The position numbers and the translations under genes were made by a program. A DNA stretch of 64,000 nt from an uncultured Alphaproteobacteria bacterium. Lineage in GTDB: Bacteria > Pseudomonadota > Alphaproteobacteria > MPNO01 > DASWLB01. The DNA is taken from positions 170,570 to 234,569 of the forward strand of contig CAVZIN010000010.1 of NCBI GenBank assembly GCA_963775315.1. Direction: 5' to 3'. This document shows, one piece after another, positions 1 to 12,575 of this stretch (position 1 is its first letter; every line of letters starts with the position of its first letter). Below the pieces are notes generated by a model, which saw only the letters and a list, made by a program, of their open reading frames with translations, was not told the origin of the DNA and did no database searches.

Positions 1-507
1 CCGTCCACGCCGGACGCGCCAGCTCCGATCGGCGATCCGCCGCCGAGTACGGAGGAGTGGCAGCGCCTCGGCGCTGAGCTGGTCGCCGAGCGCACGGCCG
101 ACGACGCAGCCCTTGCCGCCTTGCGAAACGACTGGGGAACCGAGTTCGACGCCAACCTCGGTCTTGCCCAGCGCCTGGTGGGCGAAGTGGCTGCGCCCGA
201 GCTGGTCGCCGCGTTCGACCGCTCGGGCCTCGCCGGCAATCCCTTCCTGTTGCGCGCCGTGGCCGAGGTGGCGCGCCGGCTGTACGGGCCGAACGGTGCC
301 GCGGCCTCCGCGTCCATGCCGCCCTCGGGCCGCAATACCGGACGTATCCGCACCCGCCTCGACGAGCTGCACGCGCTGCAGTTCCACGACGACCCGACGC
401 AGCGCGACGCCTACCGTTCGGCGCCCGTGCAGGGCGAGCTCGAGCGGCTCTATGCCGCGCTCTATGGCCATGCGCCGGTCGTCGGCCGCGAATCGCGCGT
501 CGCCTAG
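1..507 (+). CDS. Phage hypothetical protein, 5' end outside the window
   Basis: Frame 1 is open from nt 1 to the stop at 505-507. The listed ORF 121..507 is only its internal Met. It lies 17 nt upstream of the next phage gene. No family recognised. Confidence 0.45.
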   Translation, partial: PSTPDAPAPIGDPPPSTEEWQRLGAELVAERTADDAALAALRNDWGTEFDANLGLAQRLVGEVAAPELVAAFDRSGLAGNPFLLRAVAEVARRLYGPNGAAASASMPPSGRNTGRIRTRLDELHALQFHDDPTQRDAYRSAPVQGELERLYAALYGHAPVVGRESRVA

Positions 508-524
508 AAACAAGGGAGCGAAAA

Positions 525-1094
525 ATGGCCTCCGAAGTCGGCATCTGCAACTCGGCGCTGACCAAGATCGGTGCCGGGCGCGTCGTCGCGCTCGACGACG
601 GCTCGAAGAACGCGAACGCCTGCGCCGAGCTGTACCCGAAGCTTCGCGACGACCTGTTGCGCCGCCACGTCTGGAACTTCGCCTGCGTCCGGCTGAAGCT
701 CGCGCGGCTCGCCGCTGCGCCGGTCTTCGGCTACGCCTACGCCTATCAGCTTCCGTCGGACTGGCTGCGCACGGTCGCCGTCTATGAGGACGATGCCGCG
801 GCGGCGCTCGCAGACTACCGCATCGAAGGCCGGACGATCCTATCGTCGGCCGAGGCGCTCTACCTCCTCTACATCCGCGCCGTCACGGATCCGAACGACA
901 TGCCCTCGGATTTCCGCGAGGCGCTGGCGTGCCTGCTCGCCTGCGACCTGTCCGTGCCGATTGCCCAGTCCTGGAGCCTGCGCCAGGAGATGGGCGACGC
1001 GTTCCGGGATGCCGTGGCGCGCGCGAAAAGCGTCGACGCGGTCGAGGACTGCCCCGAGCCGATGCCGGCCGGAAGCTGGGTGACGGTGCGCTGA
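525..1094 (+). CDS. Phage structural protein, tail tubular A / adaptor-like (tentative)
   Basis: 189 aa with SD AAGGGAG upstream. Its size and its position directly before a ~830-aa tail protein mirror T7 gp11/gp12 order. The family call is from memory only. Confidence 0.5.
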   Translation: MASEVGICNSALTKIGAGRVVALDDGSKNANACAELYPKLRDDLLRRHVWNFACVRLKLARLAAAPVFGYAYAYQLPSDWLRTVAVYEDDAAAALADYRIEGRTILSSAEALYLLYIRAVTDPNDMPSDFREALACLLACDLSVPIAQSWSLRQEMGDAFRDAVARAKSVDAVEDCPEPMPAGSWVTVR

Positions 1095-3598
1095 TGGCTC
1101 GGGTCAATCCGCTGCAGCCGGCGTTCAACGCCGGCGAGATCAGCCCGCGCATGGTGGCGCGGGTCGACTTCAACAAGTACGGCGCCGCGGCCGCCGTGTG
1201 CGAGAACATGATCGCCCTGCCGCAGGGCGGAATCATGCGCCGGCCCGGCACGCGGTTCGTCGCTGCCGTAAAGGATTCGGAGAGCGCCTGCCGCCTGCTT
1301 CGCTTCGAATTCTCGACCGAGCAGGCCTACGTCATCGAGGCGGGGGAGGGCTATTTCCGCTTCTACCGGAACCAGGGCGTCATCAGCGTGGCCGCGACCG
1401 ACGCCGCGATCGTCAACGGCACGTTCACCGCGGACATCTTGGGCTGGACCGACCGTTCGGGCGCGGGATCGTCGATCGCACACGACGCGACCAACGGCCG
1501 CCTGTCGCTCGTCTCGAACGGGACGAGTTACGCCCATGCCGAGCAGGCGGTCGCCACGAGCCATGCGAACCAGGAACACGTGCTGGCCTTCCACACGCTG
1601 GGCGCGCCAGGCGACGAGGTTCTGCTGCGCATCGGCACGAGCTCGACCGGCGGCGAGATCGTCGACGACGTGGCGTTCGCGACCGGGCGGCACGTTTTCG
1701 CCTTCACCCCGCCCGCGAGCCCGTTCTACGTGCAGTTCCGCCACAAGACGGGCAAGACCCTGCAGCTCGACGACGTGGCCCTTCTGACGGGTTGCGCGCT
1801 CGAGCTCGCGACGCCTTTCGCCGCATCCGACCTGGGCGGCTTGCAAAGCGCGCAATCGGCCGACGTCGCCTATCTGTGCCACGCCGTCCATCCGGTGCAG
1901 AAGCTCGCCCGCTCCGGCCACACCTCGTGGTCTCTGGTCGAGACAGCGTTCGATGACGGGCCATGGATTGCGCTCAACCCGGACGCGGCGAAGACCCTGG
2001 CCGCGGCCTCCGCCTCGGGCCTCGGCGTCACGGTGACGGCGAGCGGCCACGCGCCGTTCGACCCCTCTGACGTCGGCCGCGCGCTGCGCCTCACCCATGG
2101 GGCGAACGAGCCGGGCTGGGGGGTGATCGCCGCCTATATCTCGGCGACCGAGGTGACGGTGGACATCCGCCGTGCCTTCACCTCGACCGCGGCCACCGCC
2201 GACTGGCAGCTTGGCGCCTGGTCGGCTGCGACCGGCTATCCCCAGGCCGTCGCCTTCTTCGAGCAGCGCGCCTGCTACGCCAAAACGACCAACCAGCCGC
2301 AGACCTTCTGGATGTCGCAGTCCGCCGACCTGGAGAACATGCGACCGGACAGCCGCGATTCCGGCGCGAACACGGTTCAGGACGACGATGCGCTCGACTT
2401 CACCATGGCAGCCGAACGAGTGGACGTCATCCAGTGGCTGTCGCCCGGCGCCAAGCTGGTGATCGGCACGTCGGGCGGCGAGTGGATCGTGCAGTCCGAC
2501 GGGCCGGTGGTGACGCCGACCGACATCAGCGTGAAGCGCCAGACGACGCACGGTTCCGCGCCCCTGCCCGCCGTGCGGGTCGGCCCGACGGCGCTGTTCC
2601 TGCAGCGCGCGCGGCGCAAGATTCGCGAATTCACCTACGACTTCCAGGTCGACGGCTACCAGGCGCCCGACCTCACCATCCTGTCCGACCATGTAAGCCA
2701 GCCCGGCCTCGTCGAGATGGACTACCAGGAGGAGCCGGACTCGGTGCTCTGGTGCGTCCGCGCGGACGGCCAGCTCGCCTGCATGACCTATCGCCGCGAC
2801 GAAGACGTGATCGGCTGGACCCGCCAAGTCCTCGGCGGATCGTTCCAAGGCGGCAACGCCTGCGTGGAATCGGTGGCGGTGATCCCCGGCAGCGACGATG
2901 CGGGCCAGGTTCTGAGCTCGGCCGACCGCGACGAGGTGTGGGTGATCGCGAAGCGGACGCTCGGCAGCGCCACCTGCCGAATCGTCGAGTTCTTCGAGCG
3001 TGCCTTTGTGGGCCCCGATCCGCACGCCTACGCGACCGGCGCGGCGTGGCGGGCGGCGATGCTGACGGCGCAGCGCGACGCATTCTACGTCGATTGCGGT
3101 CTGACCTATGACGGCGCCGCAACGACGACCGTCAGCGGTCTTGACCATCTCGAGGGCGAGACGGTCAAGGTGCTGGCCGATGGGGCCGTGCACCCGGACC
3201 GGACCGTGTCGGCCGGTGCGATCTCTCTGCAAGCCCCTGTCAGCAAGGTGCAGGCCGGGCTCGGCTACGCCCACACATACGAGTGCCTCAAGATCGACGC
3301 GGGGGCCAGCGCCGGAACGGCCGTCGGGCGCACCAAGCGCATCCACGGGCTCACCCTGGTGCTGCTCGATTCGACCGGCACGGGCATCGGGCCGGATCGC
3401 GGGCACCTCACCCCGCTGGAATTCCGCGAGGTGGCCGATGCGATGGATTCGGCGGTGCCGCTGTTCACCGGCGAGCGCTATGTCGAGTTGGAGGGGGACT
3501 ACCAGCTCGACGCCCGCTTCGTGATCCGGAACGACGCGCCGGGCCCGTTCGCGCTGCTCGCCGTGGCGCCGGCGCTCAAGACCAACGAGATGGTGTGA
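1094..3598 (+). CDS. Large phage tail (nozzle / tail tubular B-like) protein
   Basis: 834 aa from the ATG at 1094, which overlaps the upstream TGA by 1 nt. The N-terminus MARVNPLQPAFNAGEISPRM resembles podovirus tail/nozzle proteins as I remember them. The ORF-track start at 929 is upstream and unlikely. Confidence 0.6.
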   Translation: MARVNPLQPAFNAGEISPRMVARVDFNKYGAAAAVCENMIALPQGGIMRRPGTRFVAAVKDSESACRLLRFEFSTEQAYVIEAGEGYFRFYRNQGVISVAATDAAIVNGTFTADILGWTDRSGAGSSIAHDATNGRLSLVSNGTSYAHAEQAVATSHANQEHVLAFHTLGAPGDEVLLRIGTSSTGGEIVDDVAFATGRHVFAFTPPASPFYVQFRHKTGKTLQLDDVALLTGCALELATPFAASDLGGLQSAQSADVAYLCHAVHPVQKLARSGHTSWSLVETAFDDGPWIALNPDAAKTLAAASASGLGVTVTASGHAPFDPSDVGRALRLTHGANEPGWGVIAAYISATEVTVDIRRAFTSTAATADWQLGAWSAATGYPQAVAFFEQRACYAKTTNQPQTFWMSQSADLENMRPDSRDSGANTVQDDDALDFTMAAERVDVIQWLSPGAKLVIGTSGGEWIVQSDGPVVTPTDISVKRQTTHGSAPLPAVRVGPTALFLQRARRKIREFTYDFQVDGYQAPDLTILSDHVSQPGLVEMDYQEEPDSVLWCVRADGQLACMTYRRDEDVIGWTRQVLGGSFQGGNACVESVAVIPGSDDAGQVLSSADRDEVWVIAKRTLGSATCRIVEFFERAFVGPDPHAYATGAAWRAAMLTAQRDAFYVDCGLTYDGAATTTVSGLDHLEGETVKVLADGAVHPDRTVSAGAISLQAPVSKVQAGLGYAHTYECLKIDAGASAGTAVGRTKRIHGLTLVLLDSTGTGIGPDRGHLTPLEFREVADAMDSAVPLFTGERYVELEGDYQLDARFVIRNDAPGPFALLAVAPALKTNEMV
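1872..2461 (+). repeat. Inverted repeat, arm 1 (590 bp, original copy inside the nozzle gene)
   Basis: Its reverse complement recurs at 3664-4253. Junctions were read base by base. All three reading frames give identical peptides in both copies (for example QKLARSGHTSWSLVE...SPGAKLV). Confidence 0.9.
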
Positions 3599-5076
3599 TG
3601 GAGCTGGTGCCGTTCCGGCCCGAGCACTTCCTCGCCCTTATGCCGCCGCCCGCCCGTGCCGACCACCAGCTTGGCGCCGGGCGACAGCCACTGGATGACG
3701 TCCACTCGTTCGGCTGCCATGGTGAAGTCGAGCGCATCGTCGTCCTGAACCGTGTTCGCGCCGGAATCGCGGCTGTCCGGTCGCATGTTCTCCAGGTCGG
3801 CGGACTGCGACATCCAGAAGGTCTGCGGCTGGTTGGTCGTTTTGGCGTAGCAGGCGCGCTGCTCGAAGAAGGCGACGGCCTGGGGATAGCCGGTCGCAGC
3901 CGACCAGGCGCCAAGCTGCCAGTCGGCGGTGGCCGCGGTCGAGGTGAAGGCACGGCGGATGTCCACCGTCACCTCGGTCGCCGAGATATAGGCGGCGATC
4001 ACCCCCCAGCCCGGCTCGTTCGCCCCATGGGTGAGGCGCAGCGCGCGGCCGACGTCAGAGGGGTCGAACGGCGCGTGGCCGCTCGCCGTCACCGTGACGC
4101 CGAGGCCCGAGGCGGAGGCCGCGGCCAGGGTCTTCGCCGCGTCCGGGTTGAGCGCAATCCATGGCCCGTCATCGAACGCTGTCTCGACCAGAGACCACGA
4201 GGTGTGGCCGGAGCGGGCGAGCTTCTGCACCGGATGGACGGCGTGGCACAGATCGTCCGGATCGAGTCCGCCCTCTCACTGACGATTTCGGCCGGCTCGA
4301 CCCTCGGCACGACCAGCGGCGAGCCCTGCCGTCTCTGGATCGTGGTCGCGACCTATGGCGGGGCGACACAGCTGGGCGCAGTGAATTGCCTCGACCATGG
4401 CACGTTCACCATCTTTCCGCTGCGCCAGACGGGAATCGCCACCGTCTACGCCGAGGGCGGCGCAGGCGGCGCCGACACTGCGGGTGCGATCTACGCGACC
4501 ACCTCGACCGGCGCGTCGTTCACCATCCTCGGCTATATCGAGTGGCCGGCCGGGCTCGTTACGGCCGGCACATGGAATACGGCGCCCTCGGTCGTCCAGC
4601 TGTACGACGCCCAGACGGCCCTTCCCGGCCAGTACCTCGGCTGCTTGAGCAGCTACAACAGCGTCGCCGCGACCGGCTCCACAATCATCCCCTGCGACAA
4701 CACCGCGCCGCAAAGCAGCGAGGGCGACCAGTACCTGACGCGCGCGGCTTGGGCGCTGAGTCCCGCCAACCTGATCGAGGTCGAGGTGCAGGCCTTCTTT
4801 GCCAGCTCAGCAGCGGGCAGCCTCACCCTGGCGCTGTTCCAGGACACCGACATGTCGGCCAAGGCCGTCTCGGTCTCCACCGCTGCCGTCAACGCCATCT
4901 ACGGGGCGCGCCGCCTCACCTACCTTGCGCGCCCGAATCCTGCCGGTGTCACAAGCTTCTACGTGCGTGCGGGCCTCAGCGTCGCCGGTACGCTCACCTT
5001 CAACGGCGTCGCAGGCGCCGGGCTCTATGGCGGCCGGCTCCTCAGCTACATCCGTCTGCGGGAGATCATGGCATGA
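3598..5076 (+). pseudogene. Chimeric ORF: short 5' remnant of a phage gene, the inverted copy of the nozzle-gene segment, and a tail-fibre-like C-terminal region
   Basis: ATG at 3598 (MELVPFRPEHFLALMPPP) runs into antisense repeat DNA at 3664-4253, which is open only by chance. From 4254 on, the sequence is Gly/Ala/Thr/Ser-rich and tail-fibre-like (..ISAGSTLGTTSG..TLTFNGVAGAGLYGG..). Confidence 0.5.
3664..4253 (-). repeat. Inverted repeat, arm 2 (590 bp, derived inverted copy)
   Basis: Reverse complement of 1872-2461. There is one mismatch at 3663/2462, then 8 more matching nt. The spacer between the arms is 1202 bp. Confidence 0.9.
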
Positions 5077-5441
5077 GCACCGTTCGAGTCGTCTACGACC
5101 AGGAGCCGACCTTTCCGGCAACCGACCAGCACCCGGACGCCGCCCGCTACCAGGTGGGCGGACGCTGGGTCGACGCTATCGGCGGGGCGCCGACCGAGAC
5201 GGAAGTGACAGCCTTTCTGGCGACAGCGCAGCGCTGGCTCGTCCCCAAGCTTCAGATCGTCGACCGGCTGATTGCCATTGGGCTGATGGACGCCGCGACC
5301 GCGACGCTCAATGATGCGGCGAACGTCACAGTCAAGACGCGCTGGGACGCCGCCGCCGAGGTGTGGAACGACGACCCGCAGGCCCTGGCACTGCTGGCCG
5401 CTATCGGCGCGGATGCCGCAAGCGTGCTGGCGCCAGCATGA
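5073..5441 (+). CDS. Phage hypothetical protein
   Basis: 122 aa. ATGA overlap with the upstream stop. Coding-like composition. No family recognised. Confidence 0.5.
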   Translation: MSTVRVVYDQEPTFPATDQHPDAARYQVGGRWVDAIGGAPTETEVTAFLATAQRWLVPKLQIVDRLIAIGLMDAATATLNDAANVTVKTRWDAAAEVWNDDPQALALLAAIGADAASVLAPA

Positions 5442-6465: not shown

Positions 6466-6497
6466 CCGCGCGCTACTCGCGTTCACCGAAAAGGAAA

Positions 6498-6527
6498 GGC
6501 CCCGGCGGTGACGCCGGGGCCTTTTTT
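6498..6527 (+). terminator. Rho-independent terminator after the lysis cassette
   Basis: GGCCCCGGCG-gtga-CGCCGGGGCC stem-loop followed by TTTTTT. Confidence 0.8.
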
Positions 6528-6576
6528 CGTGAGGGCTGCGTGCCGGTCGTGGCCAGGCGCCCCCGAGGGGGAAACC

Positions 6577-6653
6577 TGGTCGGAGCGAGAGGATTCGAAC
6601 CTCCGACCCCCGCCTCCCGAAGACGGTGCTCTACCAGGCTGAGCTACGCTCCG
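6577..6653 (-). tRNA. tRNA-Pro (anticodon CGG)
   Basis: The reverse complement folds as a cloverleaf. Acceptor CGGAGCG/CGCTCCG, anticodon loop TTCGGGA, T-loop GGTTCGAAT, encoded CCA. 77 nt. Confidence 0.9.
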
Positions 6654-6713
6654 GCATCCCTGAGGACCGCTATATAACCTTCCGCCCAGCGAGCCGCAAG
6701 CGGCGGCCCGCCG

Positions 6714-7763
6714 CTAGTAGGCGCGGTCGACGGCGAACTCCACCGCCTCGATCAGCGCCCCCTTCTCCGAACCGGGCGGGAAGATCTCAAGGGCCTGACG
6801 CGCCGCGGCGCGGTAGCCGCGGGCGCGGTCGATCGTCGCCTTCAGCGCGCCGACCTTCTCCAGGAGAGCGGCGGCACGGCGGAAATCGCCCTTCTTCTGC
6901 TCCAGATCCTCGAGCGTGCGGCGCCAGAACGCGCGCTGTTCGTCATCGCCCTCCCGAAAAGCCAGAACCACCGGCAGGGTGATCTTGCCCTCGCGGAAAT
7001 CGTCGCCGACCGTCTTGCCGAGTGTCGCCTGCTGGGCCGAATAGTCGAGCACATCGTCGATCAGCTGGAAGGCGATACCGAGGTTGTAGCCATAGGTGCG
7101 GAGTGCCGAGCGTTCCGCCTCCGGCCTGTCGGACACGACCGCGCCGATCTCCGCCGCCGCGGCGAACAGCTTGGCCGTCTTCGCCCGGATCACCGCCAAA
7201 TAGTCTTCCTCGGTCGTGTCGGTGTCGTTGGCGGTCACGAGCTGGGCCACCTCGCCCTCCGCGATGACGGCGGAGGCCTCGGAAAGTATGGCCAGCACGT
7301 CGAGCGACCCATCCGCGACCATGAGCTGGAAGGCGCGGCTGAACAGAAAGTCGCCGACCAGCACGCTCGACTTGTTGCCCCAGACCGAGTTGGCGGTGGC
7401 AAGCCCGCGGCGGAGGTCGCTTTCGTCGACCACGTCGTCGTGCAGCAGGGTAGCGGTGTGGATGAACTCGACCGAGGCGGCGAGGCCGATATGGCGCGAC
7501 CCCGTGTAGCCGCAGAGCCGCGCTGCGCCCAGCGTCAGCATGGGACGCAGTCGCTTGCCGCCGGCGGCGATGATGTGGCCGGCGAGCTGGGGGATCAGCA
7601 GAACCGGCGACTGCATCCGCTGCAGGATCACCTCGTTGACGCGCGCGAGATCCTCGCGCGTCAGGTCGACGAGGGAATCGAGCGTCGGTCGCGGGAACTC
7701 GTCCCGGCCGCCTTCCAGGCTGACGACGACGCTCACCCTCGGCTCCCGTGGCAGTTGACGCAA
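6714..7763 (-). CDS. ispB: Polyprenyl (octaprenyl) diphosphate synthase
   Basis: Two Asp-rich motifs, LLHDDVVDES and FQLIDDVLDY. Length is typical for the family. The exact start is uncertain. Confidence 0.85.
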   Translation of the reverse strand: MRQLPREPRVSVVVSLEGGRDEFPRPTLDSLVDLTREDLARVNEVILQRMQSPVLLIPQLAGHIIAAGGKRLRPMLTLGAARLCGYTGSRHIGLAASVEFIHTATLLHDDVVDESDLRRGLATANSVWGNKSSVLVGDFLFSRAFQLMVADGSLDVLAILSEASAVIAEGEVAQLVTANDTDTTEEDYLAVIRAKTAKLFAAAAEIGAVVSDRPEAERSALRTYGYNLGIAFQLIDDVLDYSAQQATLGKTVGDDFREGKITLPVVLAFREGDDEQRAFWRRTLEDLEQKKGDFRRAAALLEKVGALKATIDRARGYRAAARQALEIFPPGSEKGALIEAVEFAVDRAY

Positions 7764-7863
7764 TTGTGGAATGACGGGAGCATAGACCCGTCGCGGCGGC
7801 GGTCAAGCTGCCGCGGATCCGCCGCCGGGCCGCCGCGCCCGCCGTTGGCGCGCCGGAGCGGGG

Positions 7864-8082
7864 ATGAAGGAACTTCTGCGGACGAACGACGCGGTGCTTC
7901 TGTCTTGGCTGACCGCGCTGCTCCGCGCGGAGCAGATCGAGCCGATCCTGTTCGATGCATACACCTCGGTCGTGGAGGGCAGCATCGGCGCCATTCCGCG
8001 GCGGCTGATGGTTGCGGACGAGGATCATGCCCGGGCGCGACGGATCATCGAGGAAGCGGGCGAGGGCTCCCATCTCGACTGA
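7864..8082 (+). CDS. DUF2007-like small protein
   Basis: 72 aa. MKELLRTNDAVLLSWLTALLRAEQIE... resembles the DUF2007 family as I remember it. Confidence 0.6.
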   Translation: MKELLRTNDAVLLSWLTALLRAEQIEPILFDAYTSVVEGSIGAIPRRLMVADEDHARARRIIEEAGEGSHLD

Positions 8083-8818
8083 CGAGACCACCGAGGACGC
8101 CATCCTCGGCGGGCGCGTCGTCGTGCGCCAGCCGCGCGAGGGATTCCGCGTCGCGATCGATTCCGTGCTGCTCGCCGCCGCCGTCCCGGCGCGCGCCGGC
8201 GACCTGATCTTCGAGCCTGGCACCGGCGTCGGCGCCGCAGCGCTCTGCCTTCTTCGCCGCGTGCCAGAGTGCCGCGTCGTCGGGCTCGAGCTGCAGTCGG
8301 CGCTCGCCGCACTCGCGCGCGAGAACGGTGCGCGCAACGACCTCGGTTCGTCGTTCGAAGTGGTTGAGGGCGACGTCGCAGCACCGTCGTCGCGAATCAC
8401 CCCTGGCACCTTCTCGCACGTAATGATCAACCCGCCCTACCTCGAACCGGCGCGTGCGCGTGCGCCCCGTGCGGCAGCGCGCGCTGCCGCGATGGTCGAA
8501 GGCGAGGCCGCGCTCGACCGATGGATCGCGGCGGCGCTCCGCGCGCTGCGCCACAAGGGCAGTCTCACGATGATCCATCGCGCCGACCGGTTGCCGGACA
8601 TCCTCGCCGCGCTCGATGGCCGAGCAGGTGAGACCGTGGTCTTCCCGATCTGGCCCGAACGCCTGAGAAATCGGGCGATTCGCGTGATCGTGCGGGCGCG
8701 GAAGGGCATCTCAGCGCCGTTCCGGCTGACGGGCGGACTCGTCCTTCATGCGCAGGGAGGCGGCTATGCGCCAGAAGCGGAAGCGGTGCTGCGCGATGGC
8801 AAGCCGCTCGCCTTCTAG
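8027..8818 (+). CDS. SAM-dependent N6-adenine methyltransferase (TrmN6/YfiC-like)
   Basis: Catalytic NPPY motif (VMINPPYLE) and a GTGVG SAM-binding loop. The ATG at 8027 has SD GAGGA. The track start at 8012 is a TTG. Confidence 0.7.
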   Translation: MPGRDGSSRKRARAPISTDETTEDAILGGRVVVRQPREGFRVAIDSVLLAAAVPARAGDLIFEPGTGVGAAALCLLRRVPECRVVGLELQSALAALARENGARNDLGSSFEVVEGDVAAPSSRITPGTFSHVMINPPYLEPARARAPRAAARAAAMVEGEAALDRWIAAALRALRHKGSLTMIHRADRLPDILAALDGRAGETVVFPIWPERLRNRAIRVIVRARKGISAPFRLTGGLVLHAQGGGYAPEAEAVLRDGKPLAF

Positions 8819-9036
8819 CGACCGCGGGGTGGCGCGCGACCTCTTCGATTGGCTTCTACGCGTTCTCGACTGAGGTTTGGAGAAGTCATCGCTGGTTCGT
8901 CGCCGGATCGGGCGACAACGACTGGCAAATCGCAAAATTCGATTGATCACTTGGCGATGAACAATTGAATCTCACGGCGTTCTCGGTATATTGAGTCGGC
9001 CGGCAAATGGGTGCCGGTGCAAGTGGAGAGACGACC

Positions 9037-9114
9037 ATGGCTGCTCCGGCAAAGAAGGCCGCCAAGAAGACCGCCACCACGAAGAAGAAGACGGCGAGCA
9101 AGAAGAAGAAGTAG
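9037..9114 (+). CDS. Candidate 25-aa Lys-rich micro-protein (MAAPAKKAAKKTATTKKKTASKKKK)
   Basis: SD GGAGAG 7 nt upstream of the ATG and a strong terminator hairpin downstream. Too short for the ORF track. Expression is unproven. Confidence 0.35.
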   Translation: MAAPAKKAAKKTATTKKKTASKKKK

Positions 9115-9171
9115 TTTCCGGCCGACCGAGGCGGACGGAACCCGCGCCACGGTCGGCGCGGTGGAAATGAG

Positions 9172-9205
9172 GCGGCGGTCTGGGCATCCAGGCCGCCGCT
9201 CTTTT
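9172..9205 (+). terminator. Rho-independent terminator
   Basis: GCGGCGGTCTGG-gcat-CCAGGCCGCCGC (one mismatch) followed by TCTTTT. Confidence 0.7.
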
Positions 9206-9284
9206 ATGTGCCGAGCTTTCCGTCCGCGCGCCGCGCCCGTCCCCGTCCTTGACCCGCCCGGATGGGCGAGCCTAGAAGACAAGA

Positions 9285-9548
9285 ATGCTGGGGCTGAGTT
9301 TTTCCAAACTCGTATTCCTGATCGTCGTCATCGCCGTCGTCTGGTACGGCTTCAAGTGGCTCGGCCATACCGAGGCGCGGCGCGTCAACCGCGACGACAC
9401 CCGGCCGCGCGCGCGGGCGCGCACCGCCGACCGGGCGGCGGTCAGCGCCGAGGACACGGTCCGCTGCAGCGTATGCGACACCTATGTGGTCGCGCGCGAT
9501 CCCCGCAGCTGTGGCCGTGCCGGATGCCCTTATCCGCCGGCAAAGTGA
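9285..9548 (+). CDS. Small membrane-anchored protein with C-terminal Cys-rich (zinc-ribbon-like) motif
   Basis: N-terminal TM segment LVFLIVVIAVVWYGF. C-terminal CSVCDTYV...CGRAGCPY. Confidence 0.5.
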   Translation: MLGLSFSKLVFLIVVIAVVWYGFKWLGHTEARRVNRDDTRPRARARTADRAAVSAEDTVRCSVCDTYVVARDPRSCGRAGCPYPPAK

Positions 9549-9626: not shown

Positions 9627-10499
9627 ATGACCGAAGCTTCCCCAGCGAGGACCTCGTTCCAGGGCCTGATCCTCGCCTTGCAATCCTACTGGGCGGCGCA
9701 GGGATGCGTCCTCCTGCAGCCCTACGACATGGAGGTGGGGGCGGGGACGTTTCATCCCGCCACGCTGCTGCGCGCGCTGGGCAAGGGCGCCTGGCGATGC
9801 GCCTACGTGCAGCCGTCGCGCCGGCCGACCGACGGGCGCTATGGCGAGAATCCGAACCGACTGCAGCACTACTACCAGTTCCAGGTCATCCTGAAGCCGT
9901 CGCCCGCCGACAGCCAGCAGCTCTACCTCGAGAGCCTGCGGACCCTCGGCATCGACGCGGCGCTGCACGACGTCCGCTTTGTCGAGGACGACTGGGAGAG
10001 CCCCACACTGGGCGCCGCCGGCCTCGGCTGGGAAGTGTGGTGCGACGGGATGGAGGTGACCCAATTCACCTATTTCCAGCAGGTGGGCGGAATCGAGTGC
10101 GACCCGGTATCGGTCGAGCTGACCTACGGGCTCGAACGGCTGGCCATGTACATCCAGGGCGTCGAGAACGTCTACGACCTGGACTTCAATGGCGCGGGCG
10201 TGACCTACGGCGACGTGTTCCTGCGGAGCGAGCGCGAGTTCTCCGCCTTCAATTTCGAGCACGCCAACACCGAGAACCTGTTCAAGCAGTTCGCGTTCGC
10301 CGAAGGCGAGTGCGCGGCCCTGCTGGGGCATGACCTCGCCCTGCCCGCCTATGACCAGTGCATCAAGGCGAGCCACCTGTTCAATCTCCTGGATGCGCGC
10401 GGCGTGATCAGCGTCACCGAGCGGGCCGCCTATATCGGGCGCGTGCGGGCGCTCGCGAAGGGATGCTGCGAGGCCTGGCTTCGCGGCACGGCGGCATAG
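9627..10499 (+). CDS. glyQ: Glycine--tRNA ligase alpha subunit
   Basis: 290 aa. Conserved GlyQ sequence throughout ([13 protein letters not shown]..., [20 protein letters not shown]). Confidence 0.95.
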
Positions 10500-12575
10500 A
10501 TGGCCGAGCTTCTGTTCGAGCTTCTTTCCGAGGAGATCCCGGCGCGGATGCAGGCACGTGCCGCGACCGATCTTGAGCGCGCCATCATCGAGCGGCTGAA
10601 GGCGTCGCAGCTCTCTTTTGCCTCCGCCGAGACGTTCGTGACGCCGCGCCGGCTCTCCATAGTGGTCGACGGCCTCCCCGACCGCCAGCCTGATGCGACC
10701 GAGGAACGGCGGGGCCCGCGCGTGGGCGCGCCGGACCAGGCGATCCAGGGATTCCTGAAGGCCAACGGCCTCGCCACGCTCGACCAATGCGAACGGCGCG
10801 AGTCGGGAAAGGCCGAGTTCTGGTTTGCCGTGGTCGAGCGGCCGGGACAGCCGACCGCGGCGGTGCTGCCGGAACTTCTGGAGGCTGCGGCGCTCGACGT
10901 GCCGTGGCCCAAATCGATGCGTTGGGGCAGCGGAACGATCCGCTGGGTTCGGCCGTTGGTGAGCGTGCTCGGGCTGTTCGACGGCCGCCCGCTCAGCGGC
11001 ACGTGCCTGGGCCTTCCCTTCGGCGCCATCACCCGCGGCCATCGCGTGCATCATCCTCAACCGATCGAGGTCTTCTCCTTCGCCGAATACCGCGAACGGC
11101 TGGCGGCGGCGCGCGTGGTGCTCGATCCCGCCGAGCGGCAGCGGCGCATCGCCCAGCGCGCGGCCGAAGCCGCTACGGAGGCCGGGCTAACGGTCAAGGA
11201 GGATCCCGGGCTTCTCGCCGAGGTGGCCGGGCTGGTCGAATGGCCCGTGGTCGTGATGGGCGCCATCGACGACCGGTTCATGGTCGTGCCTTCCGAGGTG
11301 CTGACCACCGCGATGCGCACGCACCAAAAGTACTTTGCGACGCAGCAACCGGACGGGCGCCTCGCCGCGCGCTTCATCACTGTCGCCAACATCGACGCGC
11401 CCGACAGCGGTCGCGCGATCGTCGCCGGCAACGAACGCGTGCTGCGCGCCCGGCTGGCCGATGCGCGCTTCTTCTGGGATCAGGACCGCAAGCGGAAGCT
11501 GGAAGACCGCGTCCCGGCGCTCGACGACATCGTGTTCCACGCGCGGCTCGGCAGCCTCGGCGCGAAAATCGGGCGGCTACAGACGCTGGCCGCGGAGCTT
11601 GCGGAGTTCGTGCCCGGCAGCGACCGCGACTTGGCGCGCAGCGCGGCGCTGCTGGCCAAGGCGGACCTCACCACCGGTATGGTCGGCGAATTCCCCGAGC
11701 TTCAGGGGATCATGGGCCGCTACTACGCGTTGGAAGAGGGGGAAAAACACGATGTGGCAGACGCCATCGCCGATCATTACGCCCCCGCCGGCCCCAACGA
11801 CCGCTGCCCGACACGCCCGGTGAGCGTGGCGGTCGCGCTGGCGGACAAGCTCGACACCCTGTTCTGGTTCTTCGCCATCGACGAGAAGCCGACCGGCTCG
11901 AAGGACCCGTTCGCGCTGCGCCGTGCCGCCCTCGGGGTCATCCGGCTGATCCTTGAGAACCGGCTCCGCCTGCCGCTTCGCGAGGCTTTCGCGCGCGCGC
12001 GAAGCGGCGCCGCCGTGCCGATCGAGGAGCGGGCGGCGGCCAAGGTGAGCGAGGAGTTGGTCGCGTTCTTCGCCGACCGGCTGAAAGCGCACCTGCGGGA
12101 GCAGGGGGTGCGCCATGACTTGGTCAGTGCCGTCTTCTCCCTGACCGGCGAGGACGATCTGGTGCGCCTCTTAGCGCGCGTCGACGCGCTGCAGCGCTTT
12201 CTCGGCACCGACGACGGCGCCAACCTGCTGACCGCCTACCGGCGCGCCGCCAATATCGTCCGGATCGAGGAGCGCAAGGACAAGGCCGCCTATGACGGCG
12301 CTCCCGACGAGGCGGCGCTGGTCCAGCCCGAGGAGATCGCGCTTCTGGATCGGCTGCGCACAGCCGAGGCGGACACGGCCGCCGCGCTCGATGCCGAGGA
12401 TTTCGTGCGGGCAATGAGCGCGCTGGCGAGCCTGCGCCAGCCGGTGGACGCGTTCTTCGACCGCGTCACGGTAAATGCCGACGAGGCGGCCCTGCGGGCC
12501 AACCGCCTTCGGCTTCTTTCGCAAATCAGGGCGACGATGAACCGGGTCGCCAACTTCGCCGAGATCGAAGGCTAG
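10500..12575 (+). CDS. glyS: Glycine--tRNA ligase beta subunit
   Basis: 691 aa. The ATG directly follows the glyQ stop. [19 protein letters not shown]-terminus is typical of GlyS. Confidence 0.95.

Follow-up and report, generated by a model that had tools for sequence, protein, structure and literature searches.

An exact 590-bp inverted duplication with an accompanying deletion in the tail-gene region of a podovirus-type cluster from an uncultured alphaproteobacterium

Inverted segments joined at short microhomologies or quasi-palindromes, often accompanied by deletions, are known from fork stalling and template switching/microhomology-mediated break-induced replication (FoSTeS/MMBIR) and from snap-back tandem inversion duplications in Salmonella and Escherichia coli. 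In phages, the G segment of Mu (Gin) and the C segment of P1 (Cin) are inverted by a serine invertase acting at crossover sites of about 26 to 34 bp, which serves two functional fibre C-termini. Template-switch mutations are a further described class; in their four-point model, the 3-2-1-4 order is one of two majority classes that yield a single perfect inverted repeat (Loytynoja and Goldman; Walker et al. 2021, PMC7954356). Here, we analysed an exact 590-bp inverted duplication in a 64,000-nucleotide stretch (the window; C10:170570-234569, contig CAVZIN010000010.1 being C10 below) of the genome of an uncultured alphaproteobacterium, which comprises 12 contigs and 4.49 Mb at 69% GC. The duplicated segment comes from the nozzle (tail tubular protein B) gene of a podovirus-type gene cluster of about 16 kb. 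We consider it probable that the locus is the scar of a single, recent and accidental template-switch event, which left an inverted duplication and a deletion in a phage-like late operon. Such a scar is an ordinary, already known kind of mutation and not a new system.

The locus has the 3-2-1-4 order and the single perfect inverted repeat of template-switch mutations; nevertheless, the described events mostly involve tens of bases at one fork, whereas the present one comprises 590 nt from 1.2 kb away, with 1.6 kb skipped. With rearrangements of the FoSTeS/MMBIR type it shares an inverted duplicated segment, a short microhomology (seen at one junction) and an accompanying deletion. However, those cases were selected for amplification, range from kilobases to megabases and gain copies, whereas here there is no sign of selection and a net loss of about 1 kb. 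As in Mu and P1, a tail-region segment of a phage-like element lies between inverted repeats, but the invertase, the short crossover sites and the alternative fibre C-termini are all lacking. In gene content, the element resembles the HTVC010P-type pelagiphages (e.g., Lederberg, MT647605), with which it shares the order tubular A, tubular B, acetyltransferase, small internal virion protein and fibre, its nozzle protein being 38 to 43% identical in amino acids (aa) to their tubular B. The pelagiphages differ in that two large internal proteins, of about 590 and 1254 aa, precede their fibre and in having about 19 kb of early and replication genes; the window's element and its genus lack both.

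The duplicated segment, its junctions and the missing genes

Direct comparison of positions 1872-2461 with 3664-4253 gave 590 of 590 identical bases in reverse complement, and an exact match of this length is impossible as a chance event. A repeat finder extended the arms to 599 nt (1872-2470 and 3655-4253, 1184 nt apart) with a single mismatch, 2462 versus 3663, and gapped BLAST stretched the similarity to about 610 nt. By BLAST, the 590-bp segment has two copies in the 4.49-Mb genome, and a genome-wide self-BLAST returned the repeat as the only local inverted duplication that is not an insertion sequence (IS). These results bear out an earlier reading made from the sequence alone (the sequence-only reading), which had described the exact duplication, its 1202-bp spacer and the coordinates of both arms, and had placed the start of the derived arm within the gene that begins at 3598; the onset lies 66 nt after that ATG. 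For comparison, we used three other species of the genus (G001 to G003), one genome of a sister genus (G004) and a metagenome contig (L025). The features of the rearranged region are as follows.

1091..3598, plus strand: intact nozzle (tail tubular protein B) gene, 835 aa; phrog_376, E 1.7e-200
1872..2461, plus strand: arm 1, the original segment, nozzle codons ~261-457; in its native position in all relatives
2462..3663, plus strand: spacer, 1202 bp; made up of the last 38% (3' end) of the nozzle gene and codons 1-22 of the 128-aa gene
2463..2470, plus strand: nozzle-side microhomology partner TCGGCACG; reverse complement of 3655-3662
3598..3663, plus strand: 22-codon remnant of a 128-aa acetyltransferase-like/internal-virion-protein gene; its ATG overlaps the nozzle stop
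3655..3662, plus strand: 8-nt microhomology CGTGCCGA, just 5' of the putative switch point
3664..4253, minus strand: arm 2, the derived inverted copy of nozzle 1872-2461; absent from G001, G002, G003, G004 and L025
4254..5076, plus strand: surviving 3' half of the tail-fibre gene, last ~274 codons; frame from 4252/4255
3598..5076, plus strand: chimeric 492-aa open reading frame (ORF), the in-frame core of a 597-aa ORF at 3283-5076

The nozzle gene is the source of the duplicated segment, and it has full-length colinear matches in the same-genus relatives (83 to 85% aa identity, or 82 to 84% in the genome search that found the element; 71% in the sister genus). In five of the five relatives it is followed by the 128-aa gene, a 142-aa gene encoding an internal virion protein (phrog_418), a fibre gene of 552 to 560 aa and orf120. 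A second, inverted nozzle segment was looked for in G001, G002, G003, G004 and L025, and none was found. The five related elements therefore do not carry the same repeat beside intact genes, an arrangement that the sequence-only reading had named as one of two outcomes that would refute it. They also show what normally lies between the gene starting at 3598 and the fibre gene, a comparison which that reading had proposed: the 128-aa gene, the 142-aa gene and the start of the fibre fill the interval.

Compared with this order, about 1.6 kb is gone from the window (about 1605 bp in G003 coordinates). The lost interval runs from codon 23 to codon 128 of the 128-aa gene, across the 142-aa gene in its entirety and through ~276 codons at the start of the fibre gene. 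It includes the tail-attachment domain of the fibre, as many fibre and spike PHROGs are matched, in their N-terminal region for tail attachment, by the first ~135 residues of the relatives' fibre. The missing genes were sought in the rest of the genome and found nowhere. Since the relatives hold genes that both the window and the rest of the genome lack, arm 2 is, judged against them, a replacement of about 1.6 kb and not a simple insertion between intact neighbours. The sequence-only reading, which had the copy inserted into the next prophage gene, was thus correct as to the gene but not as to the simple insertion. Its statement that the copy ends just before a fibre-like region needs a similar refinement; fibre coding does follow, but it starts in the middle of the fibre gene and continues the frame of the copy.

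On the left side, the native gene can be followed from its start, where the remnant peptide MELVPFRPEHFLALMPPPARAD aligns with residues 1 to 19 of the relatives' 128-aa protein, up to GCC GAC (Ala-Asp, kept in all three relatives), after which the nozzle reverse complement begins. The 128-aa protein of the relatives matches phrog_4177 and phrog_308 ("internal virion protein"), and the pelagiphage gene at the same position is annotated as an acetyltransferase. The last base before the copy, 3663, is the native C (an Asp codon as in G002 and G003) and not the T expected of an arm copy. Immediately upstream lies the 8-nt microhomology, which belongs to a wider imperfect block with 17 of 20 matching positions (2462-2480 versus 3644-3663). 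A microhomology run of such length had a frequency of 3e-4 among 200,000 random junction pairs taken from the same region.

On the right side, fibre homology restarts at residue ~271, directly after 4253. The surviving part is 43% identical in amino acids to residues 271 to 552 of the G003 fibre, with the homology beginning right at the junction, and nucleotide matches to the relatives restart at 5057. Searched in frame, the fibre remnant 4255-5073 matched no Pfam, PHROG or NCBIfam family. The C-terminal module of the fibre (273 aa) has more than 330 metagenomic homologues at 35 to 48% identity, whose N-termini are of widely varying length (352 to 807 aa), some of them with PF18454.

The rearrangement also accounts for the unusual ORF across the junctions. 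From the ATG at 3598, the 492-aa ORF runs in a single frame through 22 native codons, 197 antisense-nozzle codons and 274 fibre codons, the middle stretch being the Arg/Gly/Ala-rich antisense frame of the nozzle gene. The 597-aa ORF at 3283-5076, which the sequence-only reading had regarded as artefactual, is indeed present and spurious, a fusion with antisense nozzle codons.

Origin and age of the rearrangement

The locus can be divided into three colinear pieces, i.e., the left flank to 3663, positions 2461 to 1872 in reverse complement, and 4254 to the right flank. As in template-switch mutations, the new segment repeats an older one close by in reverse complement, and about 1.6 kb of the relatives' sequence is missing. 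Because this three-piece structure matches the four-point model, it is probably the result of one event with two switches, at least one of them guided by microhomology. The product structure, the 1.6-kb loss, the microhomology at one of the junctions, the perfect match between the arms and the repeat-free relatives are directly established; the course of the event can be proposed as follows. A growing DNA 3' end would have copied the locus up to 3663 and then left its template. Through the inverted microhomology, of which 8 nt match perfectly and 17 of 20 overall, it would have re-annealed to the opposite nozzle strand at 2463-2470, either its own displaced strand or the sister strand, and 590 nt would have been copied backwards, from 2461 to 1872. 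After a second departure, the end would have returned to the original template within the fibre gene, some 1.6 kb past the point where it had first left. Reading the event in the opposite direction would give the same product, with the microhomology then guiding the return switch.

To date the event, we compared the arms with the divergence between species. Zero differences in 590 bp give a 95% upper bound of about 0.005 per site on arm divergence, set against a synonymous divergence of about 0.55 between these species. These values suggest a recent event, which would fall within roughly the last 1% of the time since the species split, provided that the arms are not kept alike by gene conversion. 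The known ancestral arrangement comes from other species only. Of the three readings that had been put forward from the sequence alone (a recent rearrangement that inactivated the tail module, a recombination-prone switch or an assembly artefact), the first is therefore the best supported, given the repeat-free relatives, the lost genes, the identical arms and the microhomology.

Several observations weigh against a template switch. Simple primer extension does not sit easily with a terminal C/T mismatch at 3663. At the outer junction (4253|4254), microhomology is beyond scoring, because the native fibre sequence is deleted and the closest fibre relative, in a search of 5.8 billion proteins, is 48% identical in amino acids. 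Sequencing runs were sought with 1500-4700, 3400-4500, 10000-12000 and 4255-5076 and none was found. Exact look-ups of the chimeric ORF, the nozzle, tubular A and orf120 (the latter without its first codon) returned no independent assembly. A 29-mer beside the outer junction had no match among metagenome contigs, and the nozzle protein, compared with metagenome contigs, matched only relatives at 52 to 75% identity and no conspecific. Moreover, the genome appears to be metagenome assembled, its closest relatives are Nanopore/metaFlye metagenome-assembled genomes (MAGs), and the assemblies of these relatives carry probable single-base errors at GANTC sites.

Among the alternatives, repair of a break by snap-back varies the template switch and does not contradict it; we regard it as possible, although it is not the course we favour. 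A break in the deleted 1.6 kb would be resected, and the left 3' tail would snap back on its own strand at the 8-nt microhomology and be extended by 590 nt; end joining, either microhomology-mediated or of the Ku/LigD type, would finally connect it to the right end. A deletion, a templated inverted insertion and junction microhomology are the expected product of such repair, and the top-strand 3' end ...CGTGCCGA is able to pair with TCGGCACG at 2463-2470 of the same strand; nevertheless, a templated insertion of 590 nt is long for end joining, and the sequence offers nothing that separates end joining from a replicative switch. Both a replication fork and snap-back break repair would thus be compatible with the sequence.

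An assembly or library artefact, or a variant carried by few molecules, is unlikely. In that case, a chimeric long read would have entered the contig and the dominant genotype would have an intact tail module. The close relatives are Nanopore MAGs of Microflora Danica, for which metaFlye assembly was followed by a single round of Medaka polishing, a step that mends small errors but not structure; if the present genome shares their Nanopore origin, the rearranged form could be a strain-level variant and not the sole genotype. However, fold-back chimeras lack a spacer and stay in the reversed orientation, whereas here the spacer measures 1202 bp and colinearity is back at 4254. Two junctions 590 bp apart restore colinearity, one of them bearing microhomology, and the locus lies in the interior of its contig, about 172 kb into 438 kb. 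No contig holds the missing 1.6 kb. IS copies of 1.06 to 1.3 kb and repeats of 2.5 kb were resolved within contigs with almost no indels, and a long-read assembly could therefore span a 0.6-kb repeat. The genome-wide self-BLAST shows no second structure of this kind in the assembly, on which ground a systematic artefact was rejected.

A perfect 590-bp inverted repeat with its copies 1.2 kb apart is a good substrate for RecA-dependent homologous inversion. It is, however, very improbable that the locus is a functional invertible cassette, in which RecA flipping of 2462-3663 would toggle the nozzle gene as a population-level switch. Apart from the suitability of the repeat, such a role could be suggested by the in-frame fusion of the reading frames, but a fusion of this kind is expected in about 1 of 9 cases by chance, and the antisense frame of the 69%-GC nozzle gene is open anyway (an 845-aa antisense ORF). 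Among the ORFs tested in the 16-kb element, none had a match to a recombinase family; for portal and scaffold, the assignment is by homology only. The fibre and two virion-protein genes are destroyed in both orientations, the flipped state merely truncates the nozzle at codon ~457, and the repeat is absent from all relatives. As a function, then, the switch of the sequence-only reading is not supported: no recombinase matched, inversion only breaks the nozzle gene and the structure is unconserved. For similar reasons (no invertase match, no alternative functional genes, no conservation), a site-specific invertible fibre switch of the Gin/Cin/Hin type or a shufflon was rejected, as was a diversity-generating retroelement, since the 590 bp show zero differences, the repeats are inverted, the source is nozzle coding sequence and the element has no unaccounted ORF that could be a reverse transcriptase.

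The cluster that carries the duplication

Next, we examined the cluster in which the duplication lies. Coordinates with a minus sign are upstream of the window, and the remaining features are as follows.

-9434..6480 (C10:161135-177050): podovirus-type structural and lysis cluster, ~16 kb; loci L013/L018, L014/L019 and L015/L020 in the relatives
about -8425..-7888 (C10:162145-162681): gene of a 178-aa protein upstream of TerL; match to DUF6456 (PF20057) near the cut-off; divergently paired with an S24/HTH repressor gene
525..1094, plus strand: intact gene of tail tubular protein A; phrog_394, E 3.5e-55; 84-88% aa identity to the same-genus relatives
5073..5441, plus strand: orf120, the next conserved gene; 65% aa identity to G003 orf120; colinearity with the relatives is back here

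The cluster begins with the divergent S24/HTH repressor, which is LexA/CI-like (PF00717, 4e-11), and continues with the 178-aa DUF6456 protein, TerL, portal, scaffold, capsid (PF19821, 1e-62), tubular A and B, the virion and fibre genes and lysis; its end is a tRNA-Pro(CGG). Integrase and replication genes were sought in the 16-kb cluster and none was found, nor did the left boundary show an attachment-site (att) repeat of the tRNA-Pro end. The cluster lies at the same locus, with the same flanks, in all four species of the genus. Its nucleotide identity (80 to 84%) and synonymous divergence (dS, median ~0.55) equal those of the neighbouring host genes, and the ratio of nonsynonymous to synonymous divergence (dN/dS) is 0.07 to 0.32 for TerL, portal, scaffold, major capsid protein (MCP), tubular A and nozzle. 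Measured in this way, the cluster is inherited vertically under purifying selection.

The described gene transfer agents (GTAs) are not known to be of the podovirus type. The lack of integrase and replication genes, the vertical inheritance, the purifying selection and the presence of a putative GafA-family (DUF6456) gene make the cluster a candidate. GafA, the activator of the Rhodobacter capsulatus GTA, matches by BLASTp proteins annotated with a DUF6456 domain (PMC9638019). The DUF6456 match of the four orthologues amounts to 22 to 28 bits, at a cut-off of 26.3. We therefore put forward, tentatively, that the cluster might be a vertically inherited, selected, podovirus-type GTA-like element and not a decaying prophage, in which case the duplication would be a very recent natural knock-out, in one lineage, of the module for fibre and virion proteins. 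The GTA-like identity is a lead, not a result.

Three further observations concern the structural genes. Both single-base "frameshifts" of G003, in portal and MCP (L018/L013), consist of an extra T where the genome of the window (G000) has a GANTC site (GAATC and GAGTC; CcrM type), and they are probably methylation-associated Nanopore basecalling errors and not pseudogenisation. Between scaffold and capsid, this genome only has a Cys-rich ORF of 204 aa (C10:168256-168882, minus strand; window -2313..-1687) with no Pfam match, in an interval of about 900 bp that is unconserved in the relatives. Lastly, the scaffold protein (C10:167369-168214) and orf223 (C10:170405-171076; window -164..507) have paralogous C-terminal halves, with 36 to 40% aa identity, in all four species.

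Consequences for the organism

With the 128-aa and 142-aa virion-protein genes and the tail-attachment domain of the fibre lost, any particles made would be expected to lack fibres as well as the two virion proteins. The 590-bp perfect repeat may act as a substrate for RecA inversion, and a flip would split the nozzle gene. In addition, a late transcript spanning both arms would form a 590-bp duplex, a likely target of RNase III.

Taken alone, the finding is of small weight, being a clean, datable template-switch mutation at the kilobase scale in an uncultured bacterium. It explains a spurious 597-aa ORF, which an annotator might otherwise call a tail protein. The context is weightier, as the cluster looks like a domesticated podovirus-type set of particle genes, conserved across a genus of uncultured soil Alphaproteobacteria. 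If the cluster is indeed domesticated, this genome would represent a natural loss-of-function variant.

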